A stretch of DNA of 64,000 nucleotides from an uncultured Candidatus Peribacteria bacterium (lineage in GTDB: Bacteria > Patescibacteriota > Gracilibacteria > Peribacterales > Peribacteraceae), in assembly GCA_964488165.1 (NCBI GenBank), contig CAZATU010000003.1, forward strand, positions 79,372-143,371, given 5' to 3'. Shown here one piece after another: positions 22,536-64,000 of the stretch. Positions within the stretch are counted from its first letter, which is position 1. The number at the start of each line of letters is the position of its first letter. The notes under the pieces were generated by a model. The model made no database searches. It was not told where the DNA came from and worked only from the letters and a program-made list of their open reading frames with translations. Position numbers and translations under genes: made by a program.

Positions 22536-22630
22536 AGCCTACGGCAGCCGAAAGAAACGCGCTCGTGGAAATATTGCTGCAAAAAGGCATTTATGCTATA
22601 ATTCTCAGAACATTCCGAACATCCACACCC

Positions 22631-25630
22631 ATGCCTCCCCAAACACCTTCTTGGCTTACCGGACGCACGGGAACCGCTCTCGCCACGGGTGCGCTCGCGG
22701 TGATCATCGGCGTGGCGGGCCGCAGCATGCTCAGCGCCTCCGTGAGCACGCCGTTTCCGGATGTTCCCGACAACTACCCGTACCTCCAGGCGATTAACTT
22801 CGTCCGCAAGAACGAGGTGATGACGGGGCATGACGACGGCACGTTCCGACCGAACGTATCGCTGCAGCGCATCGAACTCGTCAAAATCGTGATGACGCTC
22901 AACAGCACAACGGATCAGCGCTTCGCATGCACCGAACGCATGCGCGCCGAGCCCGTGCCCTTCAACGACATCCAAACGGAACGCGGCATCTGGTACTGGC
23001 CCTATCTGTGCCTGGCGCACGAACGCGGGATCATCAACGGCTATCCCGACGGTTCGTTTAAGCCCACGAAAGCCGTCTCGTTCGCCGAGCTTTCAAAGAT
23101 CGTCGCCAAGGCGTTCGGCATCGAACCGATCGTCGTGGTAGAAGACGATGCGCCGTGGTACGCCCGCCCGATGCAGGCTCTCTACGACCACGATCTCGTG
23201 CCTCCGACGGTCCAGGAGCCAGCCGTACCGGTAAGCCGTGGCGAAACCGCCGAAGTGCTCTACCGCATTCTGAAGCAAGCGGCAGATGGGCGGGTCGGCG
23301 ACGAGGGCTGGCACGGCGCGGCGCCAAGCCAACAGGGAGACGTGGAAACCACATCGTTCGATTTCGGCGAGTGGGCCTCGCGCTTCAGCTGGACGCAGCC
23401 CGAACCCAAAGGCCTGCGACCGATTCGCGGAGCGACGTCGAGCGCCAGCATTTACCTGGAAGACGAGGATTCGAGCAGCAGTTCGGATGATGACGAGAGC
23501 TCTTCCAACGGCAGCGACGGTAATTCTTCGGGCTCATCCCAGCGTTCCTCGAACGATTCTTCGGATGACGATGGCGGAAGTTCGTCCTCCAGCAGGAGCA
23601 CGAGCGGTGGCACGACGAGCGGCTCCCTCAGTAGGACAACGACGAGTAGCAGGACCTCCGTTTCCAGCACCCGCAGCACCACACGCTCTGCGTCGTCTGA
23701 TGGGCAAACGTCATCGTCCGACAGCAGTGACAATTCATCGACGTCCGACAGCAGTGACAATTCGTCAACGTCGTCCGATGCGACGTCCTCGGCGACATCA
23801 AGCTCCGTCAGCAGCTTCCCCGTCAATCGCTACCCCGCGACCTACGAGGCTATTTCGTACGATGAAGTGCGTGACCGCAAATTCTTCTTCCGCGATATGA
23901 ACGGCGGCGATGAGGCCTTCTCGACCTTCTTCAGCATCTATGGGTTCCTGCCAAACGTGGTCAGCAGCGACCCGGGCTTCCTGCCCGAAAGCAACGGCAC
24001 GTTCAGCGCGGAAACCCTCGACCGCTGGGAATGGTTCATCCGCGACAATGCAGAGTTCTTCGGCATCGATGACCCGGGCCGGTTCCACTTTGACGACGTC
24101 ACTCCGGGGAAGAACCTCTACGTCGCCTCCGATCCGGCATTCCCCTTCCAGCTGCCGTTTGCAGGGCAATATAACCCATTCGGCTCACTGCGGCTCCAGG
24201 CGCAAGTGCGGTATGACGGCACAAGCGAACGCCGCGTAGCAGTCGTCACCGGGCACTGGTGGCCGGAAGCCGGGTTCCCGAACCCGCGCTTTACGTTCGA
24301 CGCCGTTGCAGAACGTCTCATCGACAAGGAGATTCGCTTGATCGTTACAGTGCGATCGTCGAAAGTCCTCGTCGACGGCCAGGTGCAAAGCTCGTCGCAA
24401 GCCTGGGGCTATGGCGGCATGGAGGATAATCCCCTCGCCCGGTGGACGCCGTGCGACCCTCCGGCATGGTGCCCTGAACCGGAGCCCTACGAATGGTGGG
24501 ATGACATCCAGCCTGAAGATCTCACGGTGAACCTCATGTACATGGGCTTCATCCCCCAGCAGGGGTTCAATATCCGGCACGAGGACACCAAGCTCGAATT
24601 GCGCCTCGTACACCGCGTCACGTTCCGCCGTGATCTCGGCGACGGCGTCACCGTGATGTTCACCAAGTACTACGACGCGATCCAAGGGAACGAGCTCAAG
24701 ATTCCCGTCATGTGCCCCGCGCAGGAGCGCGTCTGGCCGGAGCAAAACGGCTTCGATCCTTCCGCGCTCGACAAGCCGACGGAAAACCCCGACCAGGACA
24801 TCGAGGGCTACCCGAAGCCTCTGACCAGCAACCATCGACTGCAGCCCCCGGATGATCCGGAATCGTGGCAGGGGCTCAGCATCGAAGAGTTGATCGACCG
24901 GCGCAAATGGGAATTCATCGACCGCAACCCGGACGTGTCGTTCGACCTCATCGACATGGATTCCAGCGGCATCATCCGCCAACTCGTGACCCGCGACCCG
25001 CGCTTCGTGCAGGACGTCGACGACGACGTTCCCGAGTATCCCCTGGAATGGTCGCAGATCGACTTCAACGGCGGCGAACAGGGAGAATGGCGTGCACTCC
25101 TCGAAGACAACGCCGAATTCTTCGGCCTGGAACGGGGCTTCGGCATGCGGCACATCAGCCACTGCCCGGCGCCGATGGACACGATCTTCGGGCGCTCGCC
25201 GCGCTCGCTCGACATCGGCTACGAAATCGACGGCGGGTTCGATTTGGCGCTGCGCATGATGCCGACGTCGACCCCCTCACCAAAAATGTTCTACGCCTCG
25301 GGAGGGCCCAGGGTAACGAAAATGTCCGGGCTCTACAGCACAGGCCAGATGAGCCGGAAGATGGTTGCAACCCTCACGATGGCCTTTTACCCCGATGCTT
25401 CGCTGCCGCGCAAGCCGGTGCTCGCCCGTTGGGAGATCGAAGATCGCTTCCGCGATTTCATCCCCATGGACAACCTACAAATCCGCCTTGGGCCGATGTT
25501 CGTGTGGAGCGGCGGGCAGAATGCGCTGCGCCTTGTGTATGCGGTTGGCACGCACTTCGATGATCGGTCGCCCATGGGCCTCTGGGAATGGATCATTGAC
25601 GCCATGACCGGTGAAGAGCTCACGCAGTAA
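22631..25630 (+). CDS. Large SLH-domain surface protein with Ser/Thr/Asp-rich linker
   Basis: Signal anchor. SLH repeats (FPDVPDNYPYLQAINFVRKNEVMTGHDDGTFRPNVSLQRIELVKIV; ...ERGIINGYPDGSFKPTKAVSFAELSKIV). A ~120-aa S/T/D-rich linker, then a ~600-aa C-terminal region with no recognisable motif. Confidence 0.85.
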   Translation: MPPQTPSWLTGRTGTALATGALAVIIGVAGRSMLSASVSTPFPDVPDNYPYLQAINFVRKNEVMTGHDDGTFRPNVSLQRIELVKIVMTLNSTTDQRFACTERMRAEPVPFNDIQTERGIWYWPYLCLAHERGIINGYPDGSFKPTKAVSFAELSKIVAKAFGIEPIVVVEDDAPWYARPMQALYDHDLVPPTVQEPAVPVSRGETAEVLYRILKQAADGRVGDEGWHGAAPSQQGDVETTSFDFGEWASRFSWTQPEPKGLRPIRGATSSASIYLEDEDSSSSSDDDESSSNGSDGNSSGSSQRSSNDSSDDDGGSSSSSRSTSGGTTSGSLSRTTTSSRTSVSSTRSTTRSASSDGQTSSSDSSDNSSTSDSSDNSSTSSDATSSATSSSVSSFPVNRYPATYEAISYDEVRDRKFFFRDMNGGDEAFSTFFSIYGFLPNVVSSDPGFLPESNGTFSAETLDRWEWFIRDNAEFFGIDDPGRFHFDDVTPGKNLYVASDPAFPFQLPFAGQYNPFGSLRLQAQVRYDGTSERRVAVVTGHWWPEAGFPNPRFTFDAVAERLIDKEIRLIVTVRSSKVLVDGQVQSSSQAWGYGGMEDNPLARWTPCDPPAWCPEPEPYEWWDDIQPEDLTVNLMYMGFIPQQGFNIRHEDTKLELRLVHRVTFRRDLGDGVTVMFTKYYDAIQGNELKIPVMCPAQERVWPEQNGFDPSALDKPTENPDQDIEGYPKPLTSNHRLQPPDDPESWQGLSIEELIDRRKWEFIDRNPDVSFDLIDMDSSGIIRQLVTRDPRFVQDVDDDVPEYPLEWSQIDFNGGEQGEWRALLEDNAEFFGLERGFGMRHISHCPAPMDTIFGRSPRSLDIGYEIDGGFDLALRMMPTSTPSPKMFYASGGPRVTKMSGLYSTGQMSRKMVATLTMAFYPDASLPRKPVLARWEIEDRFRDFIPMDNLQIRLGPMFVWSGGQNALRLVYAVGTHFDDRSPMGLWEWIIDAMTGEELTQ
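23461..23816 (+). repeat. Low-complexity Ser/Thr/Asp-rich coding region with a 27-bp tandem duplication
   Basis: SSSSDDDESSSNGSDGNSSGSS...SSDSSDNSSTSDSSDNSSTSS. Units tccgacagcagtgacaattcatcgacg (23717-23743) and tccgacagcagtgacaattcgtcaacg (23744-23770). Confidence 0.85.
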
Positions 25631-28186: not shown

Positions 28187-29533
28187 TTACCACGCGTCGG
28201 CTACTTCGTGTTCGGGCGTCGCGATCACCAGGTAGCGTTCGCTGATCGAGTCCGGAGGCCAGCAGGTATAGAGGATGAGCTCTTCGCCGTCGCCCTCTTC
28301 CTGGTAGGTGGCGAGGTCCTTTGCCGGAACGGTCTTCTTCTCGCGGACGAGGTAGGTGAAGGTGCGCCCCTCGAAGGACACGGTCACGCGGTCGCCGATC
28401 TGCAACTCGCTGATGCGGCGGAAGATCTTGGTGAAGGCGGACACATCCCACGGGTAACTGCTCGAGTGACCGTAGACGAGGATTTTACCGCCGCGTCCGG
28501 GGTAGCTGAAGAGGTGTCCGACGCCGTCCCGCAAGGGCGCGAGCAAGCCCTGGTGTGTGAAGGGGTCAGCCGGGTGGTTAATGTTCAACGAATCAATCCC
28601 AAGGCTTGGCAGCGAGATGGCGAAGGTGTCGTTTGCGGCGGGCGAGGCATCGGCGACGAACGTGGTGGTCGAGGGGGTGAAGCGCTCGATTCGGGGAGCC
28701 GGTGCAGGAGGTGGCAGATCGACATGCTCCACGTCGAGGGGCTCTTCGATGGTCGCCGCTTCCTGCGGCTCCTGATGTTCCAACACCAACTCCGGATCAT
28801 CTGCGGGCGAGGCAGCCTCCTGCTCGGGTGCAGTATCGACGTCCTCCATCTCCTCCTCGGGCGCTGTAGCAGGTTCGTCCGCTGGGACAGCATCATCAAA
28901 CACGTAGGGTTCACCGGGCGCGTGCTGCCCTCCGACACTGGCCATCAAGGCACCGTTGCCCACGGCGATCTGGCGGCCGCTCCACTGCATCACAGAAGAA
29001 TCGAGCGATGCGACGGCATCATTGCCATAGAGGAGGCTCAGCAAATAGACGTACTCCTCGCGCGGCAGCGGCACAGAGCTCACCGGCGTGCGCATGCCAT
29101 AGGCGGCTGCCACTTCCTGGAGCGTGGGGACGTACTGCACGTCGGGGTTCGGGCCGGGGACGTAGAGGAGCGGGCTCTCCTGCTGCCAGGCGCGCGACAA
29201 CAAAATCGCCGCCTCTTCGCTGCTGAGCACCGAGCCGGGGCGGAAGGTGCCGTCGGGGTTCCCCTGGATCAACTTGGCTTGGAACGCGCTCTCCAAGAAC
29301 GGTGCATACCAATGATGCTGGCGCACATCCGAAAAGAGCGCCACCGGAGGCATGCCGGAGCGGTAGTGATCGACTGCATCCCTCGCGGCGGGGCTGGATT
29401 CCACAAGCAATGCAACGGCCTCGGCGCGCGACAGCGTCGCGTCTTCGGCATGGGCGGATACGGCAAAGACTCCTCCGGAGGCCAGGATGACGCTGAGAGC
29501 CAACAGGGTGATACCACGGGTGGCGTTCGTCAT
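28187..29533 (-). CDS. Sortase-domain protein with cleavable-looking signal peptide and N-terminal SLH domain
   Basis: C-terminal sortase motifs: ISLPSLGIDSLNI, GGKILVYGHSSS (His), ELILYTCWPP (TLxTC-type Cys), ERYLVIA (Arg). The N-terminus is ...VFAVSAHAED, then FSDVRQHHWYAPFLESAFQAKLIQGNPDGTFRPGSVLSSEEAAILL (SLH). Confidence 0.8.
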   Translation of the reverse strand: MTNATRGITLLALSVILASGGVFAVSAHAEDATLSRAEAVALLVESSPAARDAVDHYRSGMPPVALFSDVRQHHWYAPFLESAFQAKLIQGNPDGTFRPGSVLSSEEAAILLSRAWQQESPLLYVPGPNPDVQYVPTLQEVAAAYGMRTPVSSVPLPREEYVYLLSLLYGNDAVASLDSSVMQWSGRQIAVGNGALMASVGGQHAPGEPYVFDDAVPADEPATAPEEEMEDVDTAPEQEAASPADDPELVLEHQEPQEAATIEEPLDVEHVDLPPPAPAPRIERFTPSTTTFVADASPAANDTFAISLPSLGIDSLNINHPADPFTHQGLLAPLRDGVGHLFSYPGRGGKILVYGHSSSYPWDVSAFTKIFRRISELQIGDRVTVSFEGRTFTYLVREKKTVPAKDLATYQEEGDGEELILYTCWPPDSISERYLVIATPEHEVADAW

Positions 29534-43881: not shown

Positions 43882-47727
<3,846 letters not shown>

Positions 47728-47825
47728 GAAACGCTTGGGGAAGAGGAAAAATGCACACATGCAAGCCGGTCGCCTCCTGGCCACGTTCGTCTCAAACGTG
47801 CGGAAAACGCCCGGTGAATGGGTCT

Positions 47826-47860: not shown

Positions 47861-50800
47861 TTACGCGAGTTCGTCGCGGGGGGGCATATCCGGCAGCGGA
47901 GGGCGGGTGCCCATGCGCGCCGTTCGGTCGCCTCCTTCCACGCCACTGCGGATCGCAGCGGGATCGAGGCCGGGCATTGTGCGCTTCACGGCTTCATCGG
48001 CAAGCACGTGGGCCTCGCCATACGTGTGTAGGGGCGAGCCATCGGGCTTCTTCTGGTCAAGGAAGTGCAGGAGGTAGAAGGAGTAGTACGAGCTTGCATC
48101 GCTCCAGTCGCCGCCCACTACGCCAGTAGCAATATTGGTGACGATCTCCTTGGTATGCACGATCATCGTGACGCGTCCGGTATGGGCGCTGGAAAGCTCG
48201 GTGTAGAGGTTGGTCCGGAGGTTCGCGGGGTCAAGACCACCGCTGTGGCAGGCGATGACGTCGAACGTGAAGCGGCAATCTGGGAAGGCATCTACAAGCC
48301 TGCCAACATCGGCGGGGCTTAAGGGGAACCGCGTTCTGCCGTCGGCGCTGGTAAACGACATACCCGTTGTGGAGCCGTGCACGCCAAGTGAAATGTAGAA
48401 ATCACGCACACCCTGGGCAGTCATGGCGCGCACACTCTCTTCCATCATCGCGTGAGGATCACGGTCGACGCCGCGCGCCGGCGCGCCGGAACTTACGAAC
48501 GTATGCCCACGGCCGGCGAGCATGCGCGGCATGTTCGTAATGTTGTTGCGAGTGATGTTCTGCTTGGCGTCGTAGAGGCCGATATAGCCAATGGGCCGAT
48601 CGCGAGGCAGGTCGAACGTGCGCATCCTTGCGCTGTCGGCGCGCTCGGAAGCGCGGATCGCCTCGCCACGACGCATGGCCTGCTCTACATCGGGCTTGAT
48701 GGCCGGGGTTCCGGTGGAAATATTGGTAAAGAGATCGCCCAAGTGCAGGCTGATCTGCGTCGACGGATCATCGGCGCGGCGCAACGTCACCTCGCTGCTA
48801 TCACCATCGTCGCCTCGGAGGTCCCAGGTGGAGAAGAGCCAACGCTGGGCAACGCCATCGACCGTGCGGGTAAACCCAAAGCATTCCCAGTCCGCTGCAC
48901 CAGCATTCTTGAATACCTCGATTGAGGTCGTGCCGCTGGTATAGCGCGGTGCGCGGGTGAAGCAGCGGTCGACGGATTGGTAGAAATTGAATTTGTCTTG
49001 GTTTGAGAGAGCCCTTCTGCGCAAAAGGAACAGCACCGAGCTGCGAGTATTGACTGAATTGGCTCCGCCTTCGGGCGTTTGCGTCGAGGCATCGTAGGTC
49101 ATCTGCCAGCCGCGGTAGCTCATGTGCACTTTGCGACCCTCGATGCGATGGCCCATGGTGCCCCAGGTGAGGGCATTAACGCGCTTGGCAAAGTCCTGGT
49201 CATCGGCGGAGGGGCCGATGGCATCGGCACCCGTCACATCGCCTGCGCTATACTCGGGAGGCCGCACCGGCGCAGTCTTCACGAATGTAAGCGCTCTACG
49301 TTGCTCGGCGGCAGGATCGGTAATGATCCTGTTGCCCTCTGCGGCACGATTACGAAGCAACGTACGCGACGTATCGTTGGCAGCAAGGGCGGTCAGCGCT
49401 GCGGGTGCTTCGAGCGTGTCGGCTACAGCAAGGCGCTGCTCCACCGTAGCGTTCTTGATGAGGTACGATGACCCGCTCGCCGGCACAATCGTGATGATGC
49501 CCATGAGTCGCGTTGCCGAGAACGGCGCAGGATCGGCATCGGGCAAGGCGATCGAACCGTTGGCTTGAATGGTGTAGCGCTTGGTTGTAGCGCCAACGGT
49601 GACATCGACAGTCACGGCTGCCGTCGCAGGATCGACTGAGAAGGTGGTTGCCCTGTTCTTGATGAGCCTTGGAGGCAAGCCCACAAGCGCTGCTGGGCGC
49701 ACGGCCTCAGGGGCGACATCGCGCGTCACGGCGGGGCTGCCGGCGGGCTGGAAGGTAAAGCGGCCGGGCGTGCGGGAGGTAAAGAGCACGGCGCCTCCTG
49801 CTCTACCGATGCTAAAGGGCAAAGTGGTGATATCCACGGCGCGGCCCCCCGTCTTGAGGCTGCCGTCTGCCAATACTTCATAGACAGTGGTCGTACCGTT
49901 GATGACTGCGGTAAAGGAGATCGGTGATGCGGGCGGCGCAACGCGGAATTCGTGGGTGCGGAAAATCGTCATCGCAGCCGGGAAGCCCTCGAAGCCGGCC
50001 GCTGGCGCGGTGGGCACGCGGTCGACTTCATCGCGGAACGCGCGCGCCGCAGCTTCGAGACGGTCTTTGACCGTGCTGTTCGGCTCGAGCACGTTGAACG
50101 AGCGCGTGGTGCCCCTGTAGGTAAGGGCGACGCTGCGGGGAGGCGTGATGGCAAAGGTCATGCCCGCGGGCAACACAGCGGAAGCCACTGCGGCTTCGAA
50201 GCTGCCGGGCGGGGCCTCTGGGGCGTTGAGCGAAATGCCCGCGGCGATGATGGCATTCGTGTAGGTCGTTTCGAGTGCGGCACCCGAATCAGGCTCCGCG
50301 CCCACGGGGGCCAGGTTGATATCGACGGTGCGGGTGACGCCCGTCTTGCTCATGCGGACAAGGGTGTAGCTCGGGTACGCCTTGGTGATGCTGCCCGGGA
50401 GCGTCACTCTCGACCATGCCCGCTCAAAGCCCCTGCGGCGCTGCAGCTCCCTTGCCGACATCGTGAGGAAGGGCGTGATGGCAACGGCGGTGGTGAGGCC
50501 GGGAGCAATCGGGACCGTGCGCGTGAGGCCGTCAAACGACAATGTCACATCGCGCCCGGCGACCGTCACGATCGAAACACCTGCGGGCAACACGATGCCG
50601 CGGACCATGGCTTCGAAGCCGGGAGCGGTTGTTTCTGCAATGGTACGACGTACGGTCTGCGTGCCGACCTGGAAGGCGAATGTGCCGTTTTGGGTGCAGG
50701 TGATGGTGAGGGCTCCATCGCGGCGGGTGACCGTGAACGGCGCGCCGCCCGCAGGAACGATGGCGCCCGCAGCGTTGATCACGAACGGCCGGGCATCCGC

Positions 50801-51628
50801 GCCTTCCCCAAAGATGATGGTCATGGGCGACGTGGGCGGCGTGACGGTGACGGTAAAAGCGGTGTTGCGCTCGATGCGCTCGGGGATGCCGCGCATGGCA
50901 TCGGGAGTCTCGGGCGAAGAGCCCGGCGTCTCGCCGCTGACAAAGCGCGCCACCTGGTCTTCTAAGTACCTGGCGACGGTGTCGGGACGCTGGCCGCTCA
51001 ATGGAATCACATGCGTGCGGCCGTTCAACTGCACCGTCACCTGCATGGTCTGGTCGTTGAGCAAGACGCCCATCTGCGGGTTGCGCAGCGTGAGGCTCGT
51101 CATGGTCGTGCGCACGTTCTGGAGGAGCAGCATGCGCTCCTGCCCGCCCTCGGGGGCGGAGCCGGGAGGCGTCATGCCCGGGTAGGGAGAGGCGCCGGGA
51201 GGCGCGTACCACATCCACGGGCTGGGGTAGGCGTAGCTCTGGTTGGCATACGGGTACATGCCCGACGTATCGAAGGTACCGTTGGGCCACGTACCGTTCA
51301 TCGCCGGATAGTTCTGCAGGTTGTAGACCATCCCGTAATAGTTCTGCTGGATGCCCTGCATCATGTTGGCGTACACGCCCTGCATCTGCGGCCACATCTG
51401 CTGCTGCATCTGCGGGTACTGGTTGAACATGGGCTGCATCCGGTGCGACATCTGCGCGAAGGTGTTGCACATCTGCAGGCAGAACGCGGCGAAGCCGTCG
51501 ACGTTGAGATCAAGCTGTTGGGGGGCTTCGGTCGTCTGCTGCACAGCCTCGGGAGGCGTGGGCACGGCACCGCTTTCCGGAGGAGCGGATTGCCACAGAA
51601 GCCGGCGTTCGGAGAAACGATGCGACAT
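47861..51628 (-). CDS. Giant protein, paralog 1: ERRLL N-motif, Q/M/Y/P low-complexity region, beta-rich repeats, C-terminal caspase-fold (metacaspase/orthocaspase-like) domain
   Basis: Start trimmed to MSHRFSERRLLWQS. The C-terminal region FYISLGVHGSTTG-(x34)-FTFDVIACHSGGL has His at 48377-48379 and Cys at 48248-48250. No signal peptide or TM. Confidence 0.85.
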   Translation of the reverse strand: MSHRFSERRLLWQSAPPESGAVPTPPEAVQQTTEAPQQLDLNVDGFAAFCLQMCNTFAQMSHRMQPMFNQYPQMQQQMWPQMQGVYANMMQGIQQNYYGMVYNLQNYPAMNGTWPNGTFDTSGMYPYANQSYAYPSPWMWYAPPGASPYPGMTPPGSAPEGGQERMLLLQNVRTTMTSLTLRNPQMGVLLNDQTMQVTVQLNGRTHVIPLSGQRPDTVARYLEDQVARFVSGETPGSSPETPDAMRGIPERIERNTAFTVTVTPPTSPMTIIFGEGADARPFVINAAGAIVPAGGAPFTVTRRDGALTITCTQNGTFAFQVGTQTVRRTIAETTAPGFEAMVRGIVLPAGVSIVTVAGRDVTLSFDGLTRTVPIAPGLTTAVAITPFLTMSARELQRRRGFERAWSRVTLPGSITKAYPSYTLVRMSKTGVTRTVDINLAPVGAEPDSGAALETTYTNAIIAAGISLNAPEAPPGSFEAAVASAVLPAGMTFAITPPRSVALTYRGTTRSFNVLEPNSTVKDRLEAAARAFRDEVDRVPTAPAAGFEGFPAAMTIFRTHEFRVAPPASPISFTAVINGTTTVYEVLADGSLKTGGRAVDITTLPFSIGRAGGAVLFTSRTPGRFTFQPAGSPAVTRDVAPEAVRPAALVGLPPRLIKNRATTFSVDPATAAVTVDVTVGATTKRYTIQANGSIALPDADPAPFSATRLMGIITIVPASGSSYLIKNATVEQRLAVADTLEAPAALTALAANDTSRTLLRNRAAEGNRIITDPAAEQRRALTFVKTAPVRPPEYSAGDVTGADAIGPSADDQDFAKRVNALTWGTMGHRIEGRKVHMSYRGWQMTYDASTQTPEGGANSVNTRSSVLFLLRRRALSNQDKFNFYQSVDRCFTRAPRYTSGTTSIEVFKNAGAADWECFGFTRTVDGVAQRWLFSTWDLRGDDGDSSEVTLRRADDPSTQISLHLGDLFTNISTGTPAIKPDVEQAMRRGEAIRASERADSARMRTFDLPRDRPIGYIGLYDAKQNITRNNITNMPRMLAGRGHTFVSSGAPARGVDRDPHAMMEESVRAMTAQGVRDFYISLGVHGSTTGMSFTSADGRTRFPLSPADVGRLVDAFPDCRFTFDVIACHSGGLDPANLRTNLYTELSSAHTGRVTMIVHTKEIVTNIATGVVGGDWSDASSYYSFYLLHFLDQKKPDGSPLHTYGEAHVLADEAVKRTMPGLDPAAIRSGVEGGDRTARMGTRPPLPDMPPRDELA

Positions 51629-51629
51629 G

Positions 51630-51905
51630 CTATGCGTCGAAATTGGGAAGCGGCTCACTCTGACGTTCCTGTTCTTCCTTGCAGCTGCGGCCGAGCTTCT
51701 CCCCTTTCTTCACGAGCTGGTCCATGGAATCGATCCCCTCTTGCACGACGCGTGCGTGCGCATCAAGACCATCACGGAGGAGCTGGGTGATGCTGATGCG
51801 ATCAATTTCCTTCAGACGATCGCTGGCATCGGCAAGCGCCTGACGCACCGGAGGCGGCAGGAGAGGCATGGCCAGCACGAAGGCGCGGAAGGTGGCGGAG
51901 TCCAT
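51630..51905 (-). CDS. Small helical protein (91 aa), partner of giant paralog 1
   Basis: MDSATFRAFVLAMPLLPPPVRQALADASDRL... The TAG stop lies 1 nt before the giant's ATG. Clear paralog of 54613..54894. Confidence 0.75.
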   Translation of the reverse strand: MDSATFRAFVLAMPLLPPPVRQALADASDRLKEIDRISITQLLRDGLDAHARVVQEGIDSMDQLVKKGEKLGRSCKEEQERQSEPLPNFDA

Positions 51906-51919
51906 GTGTGTTTCTCGCC

Positions 51920-51948
51920 ACTATAGCAAAAAAGCCCGATTGAAGCAA
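51920..51948 (-). promoter_or_regulatory. Sigma70-like promoter candidate, module 1
   Basis: Minus strand: TTGCTT (51948-51943), 17-nt spacer ending ...TGC, TATAGT (51925-51920). Only 14 nt to ATG 51905. Confidence 0.5.
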
Positions 51949-51979: not shown

Positions 51980-54616
51980 TTACGCGCTTGCGCCGGGCGA
52001 GATGCCCGGAGGCAGAGGAGGATGCGCATCGGAGCGCGCCGTGCGCTCGCCGCCTGCAACACCGCTGCGGATGACCGCCGGATCAAGACCAGGCAACGTC
52101 CTTTTGATCGCCTCGTCAGCCAGGAGATGCGCTTCGCCATACGTATACAGAGGAGAGCCATCGGGCTTTTTCTGATCGAGGTAATGCAAGAGGAAGAACG
52201 TGTAGAACGACGTAGCATCGCTCCAATCGCGTCCGCCATTGCGAATCCCGGTGGCGATATTATTGACGATTTGCTTCGTGTGGACGAACACGGTCACGCG
52301 CCCGGCGTGCGCACTGGAAAGCTCGGTATAGAGGTTCGTACCAAGATTTGGCGCATCCAGGCCGCCGGTATGGCAAGCGATAACATCGAAAGTGAAGCGA
52401 CAATCCGGATGCGCATCCACCAGCGTGCCAATCTGCTCGGGCGTGAGCGGATAGCGCTCCGAGCCGTCCCTGAACGCCATACCCGTCATGGAGCCATGGA
52501 CCCCGAGGGAAATATAGAAATCATGCACTCCGCTGCGATACAGTTCCGTCACCCGCTCTTCCATCATGGCCAACGGAGCGCGGTTCACGGGCGTGGCGAC
52601 GTCGCCGGATGTCACGAACGTATGCCCTCTGCTCGCGAGCATGCGCGGCATATCGGTCATCGTGTTCTTCGTCATATTCTCATTGCGATCATAGAGTCCG
52701 ATATACCCAATGGGCCGATCGCGCGGGAGCTCGAACGTGCGTATCCGTGCGGCATCGGCCCGCTCCGAAGCACGGATTGCCTCCGCACGACGCATGGCTT
52801 GCTCCACTTCGGCCTTAATGGCCGGCATTCCAGCCTCAATGTTGGTGAACATGTTCTGGAGCTCCACATTGATTTGCGTCGAGGGATCATCGGCGCGACG
52901 CAGTGTGATACTGCCTTCGACGCCTTGCGCACTGCGCGTTGTAAATACGGAAGCGAACCAGCGCTGTGTGACGCCATTGACGGTGCGGGTACATCCGAAA
53001 TGCTCCCAGTCATTCGCCTTGGCATCCTTGAAGACTTCGACGGTCGTGCCAGCGTCGCTCCATCGCGTTGCCCCTGTGAAGCAGCGATCAAGCGATTGGT
53101 AATAATCGAATTTCTCCTGCGTTCCCAAGGATCTGCCACGAGCAATGAAGAGGGCATCAAGCTCCTCTCTGACCAGTGCTGCCGCGGCTGCAGGCGTTTT
53201 GCCTGCCGTGTCACACGTTCGCATCCAACCTCGGTAGCTCATATGAACAAGGCGCCCTTCAATGCGATGCTTCATCGTACTTCCCCATGGCAACGCATTC
53301 ACGAGCTTTCCAAATTCCTGATCGGCAGCTGAGTCGCCTATGGCATCGGCGCCCGTAACATCGCCTTCGCGATATTCGTCAAGCACGAAGGGCTTCTTTC
53401 GCTGCAAGCGAAAGAGATCCTGCTGATCGAAGAGTGGCTTGGTGAGCAGCTGATCGCCCCGCTGCGCTCGCAACCTCAGCGCATCACGCGATTCTTGATT
53501 GGCTGTAAGGAGCGTGAGGCCCTTTGGCACGACGACAGTATCGGCAACGGCAATACGCGACTCCGCCGCGCCGTTCTTCAACGCATACAATGTACCGCTC
53601 TTCGGCGTGATCGTGATCGCGCCCAGCAGACGGGTGACAGTGAATGGCGCAAGAGTGTCATCAGGGGTGGCGATCGTACCGTTTGCCTGGATTGCATAGC
53701 GCTTGGTGGCGTCACCATCGGTGACATCGACCGTGACGGGCGCATCGGCCGGATCGATGGAGAACGTGCTCGGCTGGTTCCTGATGAAACGCGACGGCAA
53801 AGCAACGAATGCCGACGGACGACGAGGCTCCGGAGCAACGTCACGCGTAATGGGAGCTTCTGCACCGGAGCGGAACGTAAAACGCCCGGCGACGCGCGAT
53901 GCAAACGCTACGGCGCCTCCGGCGCGACCCAGGCTGAACGGCAATGCTGCAATATCCACTGCCTTGCCACCCGTCTTGAGTAGGCCATCGGCACCAAGGT
54001 CGTAGACGGTGCTGACGCCGCCGATGAGCGTCGTGCATGCCAGTGGCGCAGCAGCAGGCACCATGCGGAACGTGGATGCTCCGAAGATCCTCATCGCTTC
54101 AGGAAAATCCTCAAAGCCTCCGGAAGGAGCATCTGCAACGCGCTCCGGCTCACCTTTCGTCTGCACAGCGCCATCTGCGTCCGCGCCAACCGCAGACGTG
54201 CCGCCCGGCGACGGCGTATACCACGTCTCCGGCTGTGGGTAGGCGTCGCTCTGGCCACCATGAGGATATGTACTCGCCGAGCTGACGACATCGTTGGGCC
54301 AGGCGCCGTTCATGGCGGAGTACTTCTGGATTGCCTGAAGCATCCCGTCATAGTTCTGCTCAATGCCCTCCGTCATGGTGGCGTAGACCCCCTGGATCTG
54401 CGGCCAGAGCTGCTGCTGCATAGCCTCGGGATAGCGCTTGAACATAGGCTCGAATGCATGTGTGGCCTGCGAAAACGTGTTCACAAGCTCCGGAGAGGAA
54501 TCTCCGGCATCCTGCATGGCGGCCGGCATTCCTTCAGGAGTGGCGGCAGGCTCGCGTGCCTGTTCGGGGTTGGTAGCCTGGTTCAGAAGCCGTCGTTCGC
54601 GAAGGCTCGCGATCAT
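51980..54616 (-). CDS. Giant protein, paralog 2 (same architecture, shorter repeat region)
   Basis: MIASLRERRLLNQA..., ...FYISLGVHGSMTG-(x34)-FTFDVIACHTGGL (Cys at 52373-52375). Collinear with paralog 1 over its C-terminal ~700 aa. Confidence 0.85.
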   Translation of the reverse strand: MIASLRERRLLNQATNPEQAREPAATPEGMPAAMQDAGDSSPELVNTFSQATHAFEPMFKRYPEAMQQQLWPQIQGVYATMTEGIEQNYDGMLQAIQKYSAMNGAWPNDVVSSASTYPHGGQSDAYPQPETWYTPSPGGTSAVGADADGAVQTKGEPERVADAPSGGFEDFPEAMRIFGASTFRMVPAAAPLACTTLIGGVSTVYDLGADGLLKTGGKAVDIAALPFSLGRAGGAVAFASRVAGRFTFRSGAEAPITRDVAPEPRRPSAFVALPSRFIRNQPSTFSIDPADAPVTVDVTDGDATKRYAIQANGTIATPDDTLAPFTVTRLLGAITITPKSGTLYALKNGAAESRIAVADTVVVPKGLTLLTANQESRDALRLRAQRGDQLLTKPLFDQQDLFRLQRKKPFVLDEYREGDVTGADAIGDSAADQEFGKLVNALPWGSTMKHRIEGRLVHMSYRGWMRTCDTAGKTPAAAAALVREELDALFIARGRSLGTQEKFDYYQSLDRCFTGATRWSDAGTTVEVFKDAKANDWEHFGCTRTVNGVTQRWFASVFTTRSAQGVEGSITLRRADDPSTQINVELQNMFTNIEAGMPAIKAEVEQAMRRAEAIRASERADAARIRTFELPRDRPIGYIGLYDRNENMTKNTMTDMPRMLASRGHTFVTSGDVATPVNRAPLAMMEERVTELYRSGVHDFYISLGVHGSMTGMAFRDGSERYPLTPEQIGTLVDAHPDCRFTFDVIACHTGGLDAPNLGTNLYTELSSAHAGRVTVFVHTKQIVNNIATGIRNGGRDWSDATSFYTFFLLHYLDQKKPDGSPLYTYGEAHLLADEAIKRTLPGLDPAVIRSGVAGGERTARSDAHPPLPPGISPGASA

Positions 54617-54894
54617 GCGGCGGAAGAAAAGTCGGGTAGAGCTTCCGACGAACGCTCGCTCTGCTCATCCAATGCACGCATCATTTTGCCGCCCTTCTTC
54701 ACGAGCTCTTCGATCTGCCTGATGCCCTCATGCAGCAGGCTTGCATGTTGTTCCAGTCCTTTGCGCAGAATCCGGACGATGGCGATGCGATCAGACTCCT
54801 GAAAACGCTCACCGGCGTCTGCGAGCGCCTCACGTACCGCGGGCGGCAGCAAGGGCATGGCGAGCACGTACGCGCGGAAGCTGGCGAGATCCAT
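54613..54894 (-). CDS. Small helical protein (93 aa), partner of giant paralog 2
   Basis: MDLASFRAYVLAMPLLPPAVREALADAGERF... ATGA overlap with the giant's start. Confidence 0.75.
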   Translation of the reverse strand: MDLASFRAYVLAMPLLPPAVREALADAGERFQESDRIAIVRILRKGLEQHASLLHEGIRQIEELVKKGGKMMRALDEQSERSSEALPDFSSAA

Positions 54895-54908
54895 AGGGGT
54901 TTCCCCTA

Positions 54909-54937
54909 ATCATAGCAAAAAGCGCCAAATTCCTCAA
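54909..54937 (-). promoter_or_regulatory. Sigma70-like promoter candidate, module 2
   Basis: Minus strand: TTGAGG (54937-54932), 17-nt spacer ending ...TGC, TATGAT (54914-54909). 14 nt to ATG 54894. The spacer 3' half (gc.tttttgc) is shared with the module 1 promoter. Confidence 0.5.
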
Positions 54938-54951
54938 GAATACGCGGCGAT

Positions 54952-55311
54952 TCAGGCGATGTCGGTTTCTTTCGTCGGCTCGATGAGACTGCCGAACGAA
55001 CCGTTGGTCGACGCAAGCGCCTTGCGCAGCTCACCGACGTCAACACCCTCCGAGCACAGCTGGGTCGAAGCGTTCACGCCGGTCTTCTCGGGCTCGGTTT
55101 CGATGACGCCCTTCGTAAGGCTCTGGAGAGAGGCATGGAGAACGATGTAGGCATCACACGCCTCGCACTTGAGCTGCATCAAGAGAAAATCGTCCCCCGT
55201 CATGCGGACGGACGTGAATTCCACGGGGACCTTGCCCCCGCATTGCGGGCAACGCATCTGCTGACGGATGCGCTGGAGGATGAGGTGCAACGTGTGCGGA
55301 TCCCAAATCAC
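54952..55311 (-). CDS. Zinc-ribbon protein (hypothetical)
   Basis: CPQCGG...(x25)...CEAC arrangement. No further motif recognised. Confidence 0.55.
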   Translation of the reverse strand: MIWDPHTLHLILQRIRQQMRCPQCGGKVPVEFTSVRMTGDDFLLMQLKCEACDAYIVLHASLQSLTKGVIETEPEKTGVNASTQLCSEGVDVGELRKALASTNGSFGSLIEPTKETDIA

Positions 55312-58414: not shown

Positions 58415-60532
58415 TTACACCACGTCGGAGCCAGCAGACAGACCGTCAGGGCGGAAGCTCGCCGTTTCGACGCCGCCGGTGGGTGTGGTGCGGAAGACGC
58501 CGGCGTCGAGGCCGGGCCACGCGCGTTTGGTGGCTTCGTCGGCGGCGACATGAGCCTGGCCGTACGTCATGCCCTGGTTCAAGAAATGCACGAGGTAGTA
58601 GTCGTAGGGCGTATCGAAGTTGCGGCTGCGGCTGCCGTCGGGGTTCCTCGTTCTGCTGTCGGTGGTCCGGATGGGGTTCGGGAGCTCGGGCTTGGTCTGG
58701 ATGAAGACGCTGATGCGTCCGGACTCTCCGGCAGCTCGGAATTGCTCCGCCATGCGCCCGCTTTGGAAACCGCCGCTGTTGCAGCAGTTCATGCGCAGCA
58801 CGAAGCGGCAATCGTTGTACTTGCTCTTCTTGAACAAGTTCATGAGCTGGCTCGGCTCCAAATCAATCCTGCCTCCGCCGGGGATACCAAATCCTACACT
58901 CGTAGTATCGCCGTGGACGGAGAAATACAGATAGTGATTCTTGATACCGGCGCGGTAGGCAGCATCGAAACGCGACTCGAGGGTGCCAAGCAAGTCCCTA
59001 CCCGCGGCAAAGGTGTCGTTGCCGCCGCCAACCATGTTGTAGCCACGGCTGCCGAGGAATGAGCCGAAGTTGCGGGCATGGTTCTCCTCGGTGGGATCGG
59101 TCTGATCGAAGACACCCGTGTAGAGGATCGACTCGCCACGCGGGAGATCGAAGTTCCGGACGTTTGCGGCGTCGTTGGTCTCGCTCGCGCGGCGTTTGCG
59201 CGCAACTTGCAATGCTTCCTTGATGGCAGAGCCGTTAAGACCGGGTGATGCCAAGAAGGTTCTCGTAAGACCTGCAGCCTGCATGAGCATATCTGAGGCA
59301 TTCTGGAACACGATATTTTGTTCCATGACATGGTTGGTGACGGCCGCTGCAACGTACCAACGTTCGGTCGTACCACCATGATTGACTTCGATAGCGTACC
59401 TGCGGCCATGCTCCGGAGGATTGACGCGCTTGAGCGTGACACCATCGGAAGTACGATCGATACTGGCATCCAATCTGGTCCGAACACTGGAATCGTAGTC
59501 ATTGGCCATTTGCCGGTACACCGAGTTCGGATCTTCGGCAGTGGTACGCACCCAATCGAGACGTGTTTGAATGAAGGACCGTGCCGTCTCGGAATATTCG
59601 ACGCGATTGTAACCGGCACCTGGCGCGACGTCGGGGCCGCGCGGCATTGCGCCAGGCGGCGTTACTCCGGGGCTTGCCGAACCCGACACGGTAATGTCCT
59701 GCCACTGGTAGGGGTTGCGCTCCATTTGATCCTTCCAGCCCACGGAGAAAAGCCCCGGCCGGGTGAATTCGAAGCGGAATGTATGGATATCGCCGAAACG
59801 CGTGGGGCGCACGCGCACGCCGGCCGCCGCTAGAAGCGCGTTGCCGTTTGCCGGCTCCACACTGAGCGTGCGGCTGTTCACGTACACCGATTGCTGCACG
59901 CCACCGGTGCCCGGGAGTTTGACGGCAACAAGGGAGGTGGCATTCAGAATTTCCGTGGAAGCGAGCACGCCGCCGGGCGTCACCTCGGGAGCGCCGGGGG
60001 GTGGACCATAGGGAGGCGCATACGGGTTCGACGGCGGGCCACCATACGGCGCATACGGGTTCGACGGCGGGCCGGATTGCGACGAAGAGCCGGGTCTCCT
60101 GGGCCGCTGGGGGACTCGGCGGCCACCAGGAATGAAAGGCGAATTCGAAGGGTCGGACTGCGGCATGCCGTTGTAATACGGCGGCATGTACTGCGCGTAG
60201 GGATTCGCCTGCTGGCCGTATTGGCCGTAGTACATGTGGGGATATTGCTGGTTGCCCTGCTGCATGCCCGGGTAGCCACTCATCCCCTGCTGCTGCATGA
60301 ACATGTACATCGAGGCATCCACACCCTGGGAGCCGTACTGCTGATACACATTCTGGTAGCCGGGTGAGGCATAGAACTGATTCACGTATTTGAGCGCTTC
60401 CTGGACGCCGGATTCGATGTCGCGCGGCGTTTCACCGGCTCCCTCGGGGGGCGTCGGTCTGTTCTCGGGAGCGGCATGCTGCGCAAGCAGGCGACGTTCC
60501 GCGGCCGTCGAGAAAGCGATGCGGTGGTTCAT
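58415..60532 (-). CDS. Giant protein, paralog 3 (divergent): ERRLL N-motif, Q/Y/G/M/P low-complexity region, C-terminal caspase-fold domain
   Basis: Start trimmed to MNHRIAFSTAAERRLLAQH. ...HYLYFSVHGDTTSVG-(x32)-RFVLRMNCCNSGG (Cys codons at 58781-58786). It shares NFDLPRG... and YGQAHVAADEATKRAWPGLD with paralogs 1 and 2. Confidence 0.8.
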   Translation of the reverse strand: MNHRIAFSTAAERRLLAQHAAPENRPTPPEGAGETPRDIESGVQEALKYVNQFYASPGYQNVYQQYGSQGVDASMYMFMQQQGMSGYPGMQQGNQQYPHMYYGQYGQQANPYAQYMPPYYNGMPQSDPSNSPFIPGGRRVPQRPRRPGSSSQSGPPSNPYAPYGGPPSNPYAPPYGPPPGAPEVTPGGVLASTEILNATSLVAVKLPGTGGVQQSVYVNSRTLSVEPANGNALLAAAGVRVRPTRFGDIHTFRFEFTRPGLFSVGWKDQMERNPYQWQDITVSGSASPGVTPPGAMPRGPDVAPGAGYNRVEYSETARSFIQTRLDWVRTTAEDPNSVYRQMANDYDSSVRTRLDASIDRTSDGVTLKRVNPPEHGRRYAIEVNHGGTTERWYVAAAVTNHVMEQNIVFQNASDMLMQAAGLTRTFLASPGLNGSAIKEALQVARKRRASETNDAANVRNFDLPRGESILYTGVFDQTDPTEENHARNFGSFLGSRGYNMVGGGNDTFAAGRDLLGTLESRFDAAYRAGIKNHYLYFSVHGDTTSVGFGIPGGGRIDLEPSQLMNLFKKSKYNDCRFVLRMNCCNSGGFQSGRMAEQFRAAGESGRISVFIQTKPELPNPIRTTDSRTRNPDGSRSRNFDTPYDYYLVHFLNQGMTYGQAHVAADEATKRAWPGLDAGVFRTTPTGGVETASFRPDGLSAGSDVV

Positions 60533-60885
60533 ACAGACATGCGGGAAGAAGCGGCGTCGGCACCCAGAAGTTCGTCGGCCATTTTGAGCTGCCACACCCG
60601 CTCCCCTTCTTCTTTCGTGACGCGATCATTGCGCCGGTGCGTCTGGATTTCCTGCGCCTGCACATAGAGATAGCCGCTGAATTCCTTGAGCAGATCGCCG
60701 AACGTGCGGAAGGCCCTCCCGTAACGCTCCATACGCAGCCCGTGCTCCTCGGCCGTTTCACCTTTGTACTCCATGTCGAGGTACGGTAAACGGGCGCTGG
60801 TGAGCTCCGGCTCAATCACCGACATGAATCGGTCGTAAATCCACTCCGGGGGAGGCAAGCCTTGTGGGTTTGGTGTGGAAGGCAT
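60529..60885 (-). CDS. Small protein (118 aa), partner of giant paralog 3
   Basis: ATGA overlap with the giant's start. At most a weak resemblance of its charged C-terminal part to the 91/93-aa partners. Confidence 0.65.
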   Translation of the reverse strand: MPSTPNPQGLPPPEWIYDRFMSVIEPELTSARLPYLDMEYKGETAEEHGLRMERYGRAFRTFGDLLKEFSGYLYVQAQEIQTHRRNDRVTKEEGERVWQLKMADELLGADAASSRMSV

Positions 60886-61797: not shown

Positions 61798-63999
61798 TTA
61801 TTGGAAATAGGGCGGATATCCGCCTGGGCCGGGAGGCAGGATGCCTTCCGGCGAGCCGCTGGGAGTGCCCGGGTACCCGCCGTAGGGCGAGGTTCCCGGC
61901 AGCATGCCCGGCGGATACTGCCCCGGAGCACCGGGGAAGTTGCCATAGGACGGCGGGCCTGAAGGACGCATACCACCGTAGGGCAGAGTGCCCGGAATCA
62001 CGCGCGGCGCACCGGGCCGGGTGCCGTAGGGTGCCATGCCCGGACCCATGCCGGGGTAGCCGCTGGGTCCTTGCGGCATACCCGGATAGCCGGGCCGCCC
62101 CTGGGGCATACCAGGCATCCCGGGCATACCGCCGTAGGAGGGTGGGCGCGGCGCGGACATGCCGCCGCCACGATTGTGGACGATCTGGTTCCAATCGAAA
62201 TCCCCGAAACCGATGAACGCATGTTGGGCGTTGCCGCCCTGAATGGTATTGGTGACGATGGCCGAGATGCCGCCGCCGCGTGCAGCCACCTCGCGGGCGC
62301 GACCCTGCGCTTCGGGCGGCATGCCCTGGGTACTGGTGAGTTCCCAGTCGACGCCGCTGCGACCGCCGCCGCTCCAGATGGATTGCATGGCTTCGGCAGG
62401 ATTGCGATAGACGCGCGGCACTCGTTGGAACCCGCCGGTGTCGATCTTGCAGAGGATGTATCCCCCGTTCGACGAACGTTCCAGATAGGCGCACACGTAG
62501 TGACCGGGGGTGGCGCGAGCGACGATGTTGCTGATGCCCGCGGCATCCAGAAGGCTGCTCGCGAGCACGGCGAAGTCCTCGCAGTCGCCGGTGGCGCGCA
62601 TGAGCGATTCTTCGGCCGACTGGATGTACTGCTGGCCCGCAGCCTCCGCTTCGAAGTTCACGGTGGAAGCCGTACGAATGCGGTTGCCGGTGCGCGTGAT
62701 GCTGTCTTCGACGGTGAAGTACGATGACACGAACGCGCCGATCGCCTCGGGCGAACCAAGCTGTCGACCCATTTGCTGGAGCATCTGGCGTGCATGATCC
62801 GGGCTCTGCGGACGTTGATTGAGAGACACGGGGCCACCTTCGCCGACGACGTGCATGCCGTGAGGAAGCTGGATCGGGGCGCCTGTGCCGTCGGCACCGG
62901 CGGACACGGACGCCTGCTGGCCGTTGATGCGCACGAGCGCGGGGCGATCGGTGCGGCCGTCGTAGAACACGGTCGCCACAGGGGTGGAACTGCCGTTAAA
63001 GATTTCGCGCACGGTGCGGCCGTCCTGCAGCTCCACGACGCGCGCACTGCCGCCGGGGCCCTGGATGCGGAATTCATCGCCGCGCGCAGTGGTGCCCCAG
63101 GTGACCTGACTTCCATCGGAGCCCTGCCAGGAGCCGCTGCCGACGCGGACGGGTCCGCGGCCGACGAGCGTCTGCGTCCGCGTGACGACCACCGCCTGGC
63201 CCGACGCACCCTCCGCCCAGATGCGCATGCCGTCACTCATGACGCGCATGGGGCCCATCGACTGGATCGCCATGGTGAGGCGTTGTGCCATGTTCTGGAG
63301 CTCCGCGCCGTGCTCCGCGAGGCGGGACGGCGGAATGTTGTGGCGCAGATGGAACGTGCCGCTCACGCCTTGCACCTCGATGCGCTGCCCAGCGACGGAG
63401 AGTTGCTGAAGGACATTCATGATGTACTGACCGTTGAGCTGCTGCTCCTGTGCGTCCCACTCCACGCTCACGTTGGTATTCGAGGGCGTCGGGCCCATGT
63501 TGGGTGGAGCTCCGTACGGAGCTCCCGGAACTCGGCCCATCTGCGGATATCCGCCCTGGTACATGCCGGGACGGTTGATGTTCACCTGCGGCATGTTGCC
63601 CCAGGCGCTCGGAAGGCCGGGGTACATGCCGGGATTCAATGCATGCGCGTACGGGCGGGCAGGGGCCAGGTACGGGCTACCCGGCTGCGGAAACTGGAAC
63701 TGCCGTCCGTAGTTCATCTGCTGGAAGCGCACCTGCGGAGGCACGCCGTGGTTGGAGGTGACGTGATGCATGGGGCCGCCGGGCCGGTGCGAGCTGAAGA
63801 GCTGCGGCGCGCCGCCGTTGAATGACTGAATCGCAAAGCGCTGGTCGGGGCTGCCCCACACCGGTCCGCTCGCCTGGTGCGGAATGGCCGACGGCCAGCC
63901 GCCAAGCTGCGGTTGCGACGGCATGCCCGGCATGACGAAGGGCGACGTGCGCATGGTCGTTGGGCCCATCTGGGGGCCCATCTGCGACCAGGAGTTCAT
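61798..63999 (-). CDS. P/G/Y/M/Q-rich protein with transglutaminase-like Cys-His-Asp core (may extend beyond window end)
   Basis: ...MRATGDCEDFAVLASSLLDAAGISNIVARATPGHYVCAYLERSSNGGYILCKIDTGG. Cys at 62581-62583, His at 62500-62502, Asp at 62440-62442. Flanked by GMPGMPGMPQGRPGYPGMPQG...GGYPPYFQ and an N-terminal P/Q/G/M-rich region. The ATG at 63997-63999 is 1 nt from the window edge. Confidence 0.8.
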   Translation of the reverse strand: MNSWSQMGPQMGPTTMRTSPFVMPGMPSQPQLGGWPSAIPHQASGPVWGSPDQRFAIQSFNGGAPQLFSSHRPGGPMHHVTSNHGVPPQVRFQQMNYGRQFQFPQPGSPYLAPARPYAHALNPGMYPGLPSAWGNMPQVNINRPGMYQGGYPQMGRVPGAPYGAPPNMGPTPSNTNVSVEWDAQEQQLNGQYIMNVLQQLSVAGQRIEVQGVSGTFHLRHNIPPSRLAEHGAELQNMAQRLTMAIQSMGPMRVMSDGMRIWAEGASGQAVVVTRTQTLVGRGPVRVGSGSWQGSDGSQVTWGTTARGDEFRIQGPGGSARVVELQDGRTVREIFNGSSTPVATVFYDGRTDRPALVRINGQQASVSAGADGTGAPIQLPHGMHVVGEGGPVSLNQRPQSPDHARQMLQQMGRQLGSPEAIGAFVSSYFTVEDSITRTGNRIRTASTVNFEAEAAGQQYIQSAEESLMRATGDCEDFAVLASSLLDAAGISNIVARATPGHYVCAYLERSSNGGYILCKIDTGGFQRVPRVYRNPAEAMQSIWSGGGRSGVDWELTSTQGMPPEAQGRAREVAARGGGISAIVTNTIQGGNAQHAFIGFGDFDWNQIVHNRGGGMSAPRPPSYGGMPGMPGMPQGRPGYPGMPQGPSGYPGMGPGMAPYGTRPGAPRVIPGTLPYGGMRPSGPPSYGNFPGAPGQYPPGMLPGTSPYGGYPGTPSGSPEGILPPGPGGYPPYFQ

Positions 64000-64000
64000 A

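Follow-up and report, generated by a model that had tools for sequence, protein, structure and literature searches.

Caspases, legumain, gingipains and separase belong to clan CD, a group of proteases whose members serve as decisive switches and as virulence factors. Their S1 specificity is set in part by the residue two positions ahead of the catalytic cysteine (Cys-2), which is Gln in caspases, Glu in legumain and Asp in metacaspases, clostripain and MALT1. Metacaspases and orthocaspases (MEROPS C14B) carry the motif D-[SA]-C-H-S-G with its acidic S1 residue at Cys-2, and in bacteria the CHAT-domain proteases place a caspase-fold domain at the C-terminus of a long protein. Here we analysed a 64,000-nucleotide stretch (hereafter the window, to whose numbering our coordinates refer) of contig CAZATU010000003.1 from an uncultured Candidatus Peribacteria bacterium, which encodes three very large paralogous proteins, P1, P2 and P3. 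The domain at the C-terminus of each is probably a cysteine endopeptidase with the caspase/hemoglobinase fold of clan CD, belonging to a new sequence family that is absent from Pfam and NCBIfam. The genes and their predicted active sites are as follows.

47861–51628, minus strand: Paralog 1 (P1), 1255 residues from the ATG at 51628, or 1265 residues from an alternative GTG at 51658
47861–48790, minus strand: C-terminal module of P1 as modelled (residues 957–1265), with a beta-hairpin, a long helix and the predicted clan CD catalytic domain
47924–48616, minus strand: P1 predicted catalytic core, about residues 1015 to 1245
48377–48379, minus strand: codon of P1 His1094, the predicted catalytic His, two residues past strand 3 and followed by Gly
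48248–48250, minus strand: codon of P1 Cys1137, the predicted catalytic nucleophile, two residues past strand 4 in A-C-H-S-G-G
51980–54616, minus strand: Paralog 2 (P2), 878 residues, with leader MIASLRERRLLNQ and a predicted C-terminal caspase-fold domain
52496–52498 and 52373–52375, minus strand: codons of the predicted P2 dyad, His707 and Cys748, in the motifs VHGSMTG and DVIACHTGGL
58415–60532, minus strand: Paralog 3 (P3), 705 residues from the likely true start, the ATG at 60532, with leader MNHRIAFSTAAERRLLAQHAAPE and a predicted C-terminal caspase-fold domain
58913–58915 and 58781–58783, minus strand: codons of the predicted P3 dyad, His561 and Cys605, in the motifs VHGDTTS and MNCCNSGG

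Residues of P1 are counted from the GTG at 51658, with which the listed open reading frame (ORF; 47861–51658) begins; P3 was listed as 58415–60595, opening with a GTG at 60595. P1 runs from its leader MSHRFSERRLLWQSAPPE through a segment rich in Pro, Gln, Met and Tyr and through beta-rich repeats to the C-terminal domain, and a BLAST self-comparison detected no internal repeats in this protein. His1094 lies within DFYISLGVHGSTTG (GVHGSTTG) and Cys1137, 43 residues further on, within FTFDVIACHSGGL (DVIACHSGGL). In all three paralogs VHG is followed about 42–45 residues later by C-(H/N)-(S/T)-G-G, which in P3 forms part of MNCCNSGG with two adjacent cysteines (604/605, encoded at 58781–58786). 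Translation of the ORFs reproduced every motif string and codon coordinate that an initial annotation of this DNA had given for the three proteins. The C-terminal domains are homologous, with about 70% identity between P1 and P2 and about 31–32% between P3 and either of them. P1 and P2 are moreover 62% identical across their last 718 residues, and P3 has only the C-terminal domain and the N-terminal end in common with them. Among the family representatives described below, P0010 is identical to P2 and P0012 corresponds to P1 begun at MSHRF.

An exhaustive HMMER search of 1.84 billion representative proteins revealed a domain family of 216 protein clusters at E ≤ 1e-3, of which 155 pass the stricter limit of E ≤ 1e-10. 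Because a word-indexed search of 5.8 billion proteins returned only about 10 clusters, all unnamed or called ‘hypothetical protein’, the exhaustive hidden Markov model search was needed to see this family. A third homologue search with a broad alignment was unproductive, and the excessive diversity of two alignments (A4 and A5) made them unsuitable for scanning loci by pattern. The domain comprises about 300 residues and, with few exceptions, forms the very C-terminus of the full-length members; these proteins are roughly 360 to 2165 residues long. Pfam and NCBIfam scans of P1, P2 and P3 at E ≤ 10 returned nothing relevant, and a scan of viral contigs found no relatives. In the literature that we searched on Peregrinibacteria, the candidate phyla radiation and Peribacteria, the present family is not described; a genome analysis of Peribacteria reported that large exported proteins are numerous and that amino acids are drawn from external protein, with no mention of the family (PMC4736985).

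Conservation was counted over 140 domains that were extracted from the profile search and then aligned. His1094 is invariant (140/140), and Gly1095 and Cys1137 are each kept in 139/140. Together with the homology of the paralog domains, these counts establish the His/Cys signature noticed in the initial annotation as real rather than a chance resemblance. Next in conservation are G1214 (99%) and Y1052, Y1192, A1216, A1220, D1221, F1130, G1083 and R1162 (90–93%). A hydrophobic block precedes the His (1087–1091, F-Y-L/I-x-L/I/F) and another precedes the Cys (1130–1135, F-T-I/V-x-T-I/V), so that the order typical of clan CD, a His-Gly and later an A/S/G-Cys, each past a hydrophobic strand, is found throughout the alignment with a spacing of mostly 36–46 residues. 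The family motif at the cysteine reads (A/S/G)-C-(Y/F/H)-G-G-G, with A, S or G at Cys-1 in 134 of the 140 domains. The residue at Cys+1 is Tyr in 38, Phe in 37, His in 30, Glu in 11 and Asn in 6, and the one at Cys-2 is Ile in 40, Val in 25, Asn in 20, Thr in 15, Leu in 9 and Ser in 6. Polar residues are conserved after strand 1 (D1033) and after strand 5 (Q1168/T1169/K1170 and N1175). Furthermore, strand 1 is preceded by a small, conserved beta domain and then by a long helix that contains the conserved segment E..D.A....(F/Y)(D/E)(L/I/V)P; this part could be a pro-region or an autoprocessing site.

Structure prediction supports the assignment to clan CD. A first AlphaFold2 model based on a 12-sequence alignment was mediocre (predicted local distance difference test, pLDDT, 68). 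Its most significant matches in the Protein Data Bank (PDB) were SAVED-CHAT and caspases; legumain and the yeast metacaspase Yca1 stood further down the list, interspersed with a few unrelated folds of low probability. A second model of P1 residues 957–1265, based on 103 sequences, reached a pLDDT of 88.4 and a predicted template modelling (TM) score of 0.88. It forms an alpha/beta/alpha sandwich with the caspase strand order, its elements running b1-a1-b2-a2-b3(His)-hairpin-a3-b4(Cys)-b5-a-a-b6; in model numbering, strand 1 spans 66–73, strand 3 spans 130–136 and is followed by His138, strand 4 spans 173–179 and is followed by Cys181, and strand 5 spans 207–211. When this model was compared with the PDB by Foldseek, the top 50 matches all belonged to clan CD with probability 1.00, including caspase-11, legumain, CED-3, caspase-8/7/3/4/1, SAVED-CHAT, MALT1, AtMC9, PIGK and plant legumains or ligases. 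The best of them was caspase-11 (E 2.5e-7, target-normalised TM-score 0.57), and no clan CD subfamily was clearly preferred. Moreover, aligning the 103-sequence profile with Arabidopsis metacaspase-4 placed the HG of the family on the catalytic sGHG and its iACyGGGl on sdsCHSGGLi. The clan CD arrangement that had been read from two hydrophobic strands ending in His-Gly and (A/S)C-H-S-G is thus supported by a confident model with the caspase/hemoglobinase topology, by 50 of 50 structure matches and by the register of the dyad. As the two residues stand at the C-terminal ends of neighbouring strands, the topology and the caspase alignments suggest that they are juxtaposed.

In the enzyme that we propose, the predicted catalytic dyad would consist of His1094, in the His-Gly turn past strand 3, and Cys1137, in the turn past strand 4. 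Both would lie at the C-terminal edge of the parallel sheet, where the conserved polar residues D1033 and Q1168/T1169/K1170 cluster in the model; together with N1175 these may contribute to the S1 and S3 pockets. With about 25 residues, the loop that leads from Cys to strand 5 is too short to hold a cleavable intersubunit linker of the caspase type; the protein is thus probably a single-chain enzyme, like legumain and type I metacaspases, and not a p20/p10 enzyme activated by linker cleavage. The domain is predicted to be catalytically active. The protease would then be the effector part of the protein, and the variable N-terminal region may direct it to its target or mediate adhesion.

Sec-type signal peptides are clear in four relatives (P0036, P0046, P0083 and P0140) and a proteobacterial group (P0003–P0009) has hydrophobic N-termini, so that the domain of these organisms is located outside the cytoplasm. 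By analogy, the protease family as a whole probably works outside the cytoplasm of the producing cell. The three proteins of the window open instead with a conserved ‘ERRLL’ leader (MSHRFSERRLLWQSAPPE in P1, MIASLRERRLLNQ in P2 and MNHRIAFSTAAERRLLAQHAAPE in P3), which occurs in 19 of the 156 family representatives. Among the other ORFs of the window with 150 codons or more, none has the strict motif at its N-terminus.

Several observations weigh against an exported clan CD protease. The target-normalised TM-scores against solved structures are only 0.45–0.59, and no sequence-profile match to any clan CD family was statistically significant. The alignment with metacaspase-4 was the best match of the 103-sequence profile among PDB sequences and was marginal (E = 0.05), and a 9-sequence profile returned only noise. 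An hhalign comparison with a caspase-3 sequence, which placed HG on SHG and AC on QACRG, was likewise marginal (E 0.0022, probability 13%). Peptidase_C13 gave weak matches to 3 of 103 members (best E 0.0016, below the Pfam threshold) and none to P1–P3. The profile search suggested in the initial annotation thus supports clan CD only marginally, with these sub-threshold C13 matches and no C14 match to P1–P3 at E ≤ 10. Furthermore, three of the conserved polar positions deviate from the consensus in P1 and P2, where D1033 is replaced by Q/E, Y1052 by H and Q1168 by H (P1 residues encoded at about 48155–48562); P3 has the consensus residues D (84%), Y (92%) and Q (74%). Since these three positions differ, P1 and P2 may have a specificity different from that of P3, with a possible shift of the substrate pocket in this pair. 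Finally, P1, P2 and P3 lack a Sec signal peptide, and a machinery for export that is tied to the leader was not identified.

Each of the three giant genes is preceded by a small acidic gene.

51630–51905, minus strand: s91, 91 residues, isoelectric point (pI) 5.1, directly upstream of P1, with the tail ...LPNFDA
54613–54894, minus strand: s93, 93 residues, pI 5.7, 57% identical to s91, with the tail ...LPDFSSAA
60529–60885, minus strand: o118, 118 residues, pI 5.1, upstream of P3

One nucleotide separates the TAG stop codon of s91 from the ATG of P1, and stop and start overlap in ATGA at both the s93/P2 and the o118/P3 junctions. Judging from these junctions, each giant gene is translationally coupled to its small upstream partner. 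No BLAST link exists between s91/s93 and the o118 family; position, size, charge and tail motif are all that they have in common. We also observed a shared sequence, GC(T)TTTTTGCTAT(A/G)(G/A)T, upstream of s91 (51906–51936) and s93 (54895–54925) on the minus strand, which resembles a promoter -10 region. Because this promoter-like sequence is common to both genes, each partner/giant pair probably has its own promoter.

The corresponding position, ahead of a family member that bears the leader, is taken by o118 homologues twice in a Peribacter genome (L005) and also in a contig of the European Nucleotide Archive (L007) and a metagenome-assembled genome (MAG) from NCBI (L008), and a metagenome scan with the o118 family yielded 63 further loci (L009–L071). 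In 43 of the 57 readable downstream genes at these loci, the leader motif, for which the partnered genes give the pattern E-[R/H/K/A]-R-L-[L/I], occurs within the first 60 residues and the gene starts between a 13-nucleotide overlap with and a 51-nucleotide gap from the partner stop. The background rate of the leader was 15 of 257 other ORFs of the same loci. The partners have a median length of 118 residues, a median pI of 4.9 and a C-terminal tail of the type L..LESAIS, to which the tails of s91 and s93 are similar; they resemble no known chaperone family by sequence or profile. The cargo proteins from the metagenomes range from 120 to more than 1650 residues, almost all lack Pfam matches, and none contains the caspase-fold domain. 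Because most of the cargo lacks this domain, the leader/partner module is more general than the protease family. The C-terminus of one leader-bearing cargo protein of 1172 residues (L010, 5342–8857) is a DnaJ (J) domain, matched by Pfam at E 1.7e-9. As a J domain recruits Hsp70, its presence on a putative delivered protein would fit an action inside another cell.

An adjacent, co-translated small acidic gene combined with a conserved N-terminus of the cargo, the genetic arrangement of a chaperone-dependent secreted effector, is what we find here. By analogy, the partner looks like a chaperone or adaptor and the leader like an N-terminal segment for targeting. Type III class I chaperone/effector pairs and type VII LXG/Lap pairs are organised in a similar way: the gene of a small acidic protein of about 90–130 residues directly precedes, and is translationally coupled to, that of a large protein whose N-terminal segment is conserved and whose C-terminal ‘business’ domain varies, and in the pairs described here the partner has a conserved tail motif. 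For the present pairs we identified neither type III nor type VII machinery. A more speculative reading, which we regard as doubtful, is that the giants are cargo of an undescribed delivery route of Peribacteria, in which the leader and the co-translated partner with its L..LESAIS-type tail would form a bipartite export signal that sends caspase-fold proteases and other effectors, such as the J-domain protein, into or onto host cells. In that case, the protease family would serve episymbiotic bacteria as an effector that manipulates the host or acquires nutrients. The leader/partner module is common to many other unannotated large proteins. If it marks exported effectors, it would provide a rule by which the effectors of the lineage could be listed from sequence. 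The domain adds to clan CD one more family, counting at least 216 clusters, which has an active-site motif of its own and is packaged genetically in a distinctive way, and it provides an enzymatic handle on very large ‘hypothetical’ proteins of the Peribacteria, which have never been cultured.

A clan CD domain at the end of a delivered protein might also act in cis. It would then behave as the C80 cysteine protease domain (clan CD) does in MARTX and in large clostridial toxins, cutting its own chain a single time after delivery to free the N-terminal region or itself, for example near E..D.A....FDLP before strand 1. The C-terminal placement on long, variable N-terminal regions in nearly all full-length members would suit such a release module, as would the (F/Y)(D/E)(L/I/V)P segment conserved just ahead of the catalytic core and the leader and partner, which make the proteins look like delivered cargo. 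However, the shortest members (about 360–500 residues, such as P0001–P0009 and P0033) have little beyond the protease to release, and no C80 structure is among the top 50 Foldseek matches. We therefore regard a self-cleaving release module as unlikely and prefer an endopeptidase acting as the effector itself.

The initial annotation had favoured a metacaspase-type domain, possibly an unusual orthocaspase subclass of C14, and a genuine but diverged member of C14B would be expected to cleave after Arg or Lys in an intracellular programme of regulated cell death or stress. The fold, the His-Gly past strand 3, the Cys past strand 4 and the probable single-chain state are all shared with metacaspases. 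Moreover, metacaspase-4, the best sequence match in the PDB and with its dyad in register, has the A/S-C-H-S-G-G-L string in common with P1 and P2, both of which contain CHSGGL or a close form of it, and AtMC9 and Yca1 are among the structure matches. Against this reading, Peptidase_C14 (PF00656) had no match to P1, P2 or P3 at E ≤ 10, and neither C14 nor CHAT families appear among the 25 Pfam families most often matched by the 103 members at E ≤ 1. The D(S/A)CHSG motif on which the earlier assignment relied does not describe the family: His follows the cysteine in only 30 of the 140 domains, the prevailing form being C-(Y/F/H)-G-G-G, and Cys-2 is hydrophobic or Asn/Thr (I/V/N/T) in place of the S1 Asp. 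The string D.IACHSGG itself is present as reported, but its Asp stands at Cys-4 in P1 and P2 and not at Cys-2, so that its reading as the metacaspase motif is not supported. From the residues at Cys-2, the S1 pocket of the family is predicted to be neither metacaspase-like nor caspase-like nor legumain-like. Foldseek ranks metacaspases beneath caspases and legumain, and the Sec signal peptides of some relatives and the C-terminal position on long proteins with a leader or signal peptide also set the family apart. A diverged metacaspase is thus quite improbable. Nor is the placement of a caspase fold at the C-terminus of a protein of more than 700 residues unusual in itself, as had been proposed, because this is the normal layout of bacterial CHAT-domain proteases.

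Compared with the other clan CD families, the domain of P1–P3 shows partial likeness to each. Legumain and GPI8/PIGK (MEROPS C13, PF01650) have the same fold, are among the top structure matches and are the source of the only weak Pfam matches. Human legumain has its dyad at His148/Cys189 with a spacing of 41, within the range of the family, and it also acts outside the cytoplasm. Unlike legumain, the family has neither Glu at Cys-2 nor a C-terminal LSAM-type prodomain, and its C13 matches remain below threshold. It is highly improbable that the fold serves transpeptidation or ligation, as in PIGK/GPI8 and asparaginyl ligases, or a non-catalytic scaffold: the structure matches do include PIGK, legumain and an engineered asparaginyl ligase, Peptidase_C13 provides the sole Pfam hints, and a cell-wall sortase and S-layer homology (SLH) proteins encoded in the window make surface anchoring chemistry relevant, but the near-invariant dyad speaks against a scaffold, no GPI transamidase-like partner subunits are encoded nearby, and sequence features do not separate a ligase from a hydrolase. 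CHAT proteases (PF12770; SAVED-CHAT, PDB 8tl0) likewise end large multidomain bacterial proteins in a caspase-fold domain, and 8tl0 was the top structure match of the first model and within the top 12 of the second. This likeness to 8tl0 is structural only; the giants have no PF12770 match, they lack SAVED, TPR or NACHT sensor domains, and their genes do not lie in a defence island. Caspases (MEROPS C14A) gave the best Foldseek E-values (caspase-11, then CED-3 and caspase-8) and the dyad aligns with the SHG and QACRG of caspase-3, whereas identity is only 10–13% and the family lacks both the Gln at Cys-2 and the long intersubunit linker.

Two further readings were rejected. An alpha/beta-hydrolase nucleophile elbow for G-C-x-G does not agree with P1 and P3, which misfit Sm-x-Nu-x-Sm, and no hydrolase is found among the top 50 structure matches of the high-confidence model. 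A role in anti-phage defence was dismissed as well, as PADLOC defence-system models gave no match at E ≤ 1 and the neighbouring genes are housekeeping genes and not a defence island.

These neighbours include rpoC, rpsL, fusA, carA, an FNR-like reductase and a class II ribonucleotide reductase. The window has a G+C content of 61%, and P3 is 55–67% identical to proteins of Candidatus Peribacteraceae and Peribacteria MAGs, consistent with a Peribacteria origin. P1 (47861–51658) lies directly upstream of rpoC (43882–47784), both on the minus strand, in the usual place of rpoB; no rpoB-sized ORF occurs from there to the window end at 64000. Three genes in the first half of the window relate to the cell envelope or possibly to export.

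22565–25630, plus strand: SLH-domain protein, 1021 residues
25697–28177, plus strand: VirD4/TraG-like type IV coupling ATPase
28187–29533, minus strand: sortase fused to an SLH domain

Together, these genes point to a monoderm-type envelope with an S-layer and to a possible protein-export ATPase. A 2025 survey found type IV secretion genes to be widespread in Patescibacteria and suggested that they have been repurposed beyond conjugation (PMC12102498). Several PMT-type glycosyltransferases are also encoded in the window. A fourth large protein, rich in Pro, Gly and Gln, is encoded on the minus strand at 61798–63999 and runs past the window end, so that its N-terminus lies outside. It carries a weak transglutaminase-like cysteine protease signature at GDCEDFAVL (DUF553 E 0.002, Transglut_core E 0.015, both below threshold). 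Finally, upstream of the s93–P2 pair, the minus strand at 54952–55311 encodes a zinc-ribbon-like protein of 119 residues with two CxxC pairs and a weak match to DUF7351 (E 2.7e-4), which is kept in a Logan contig (L001).

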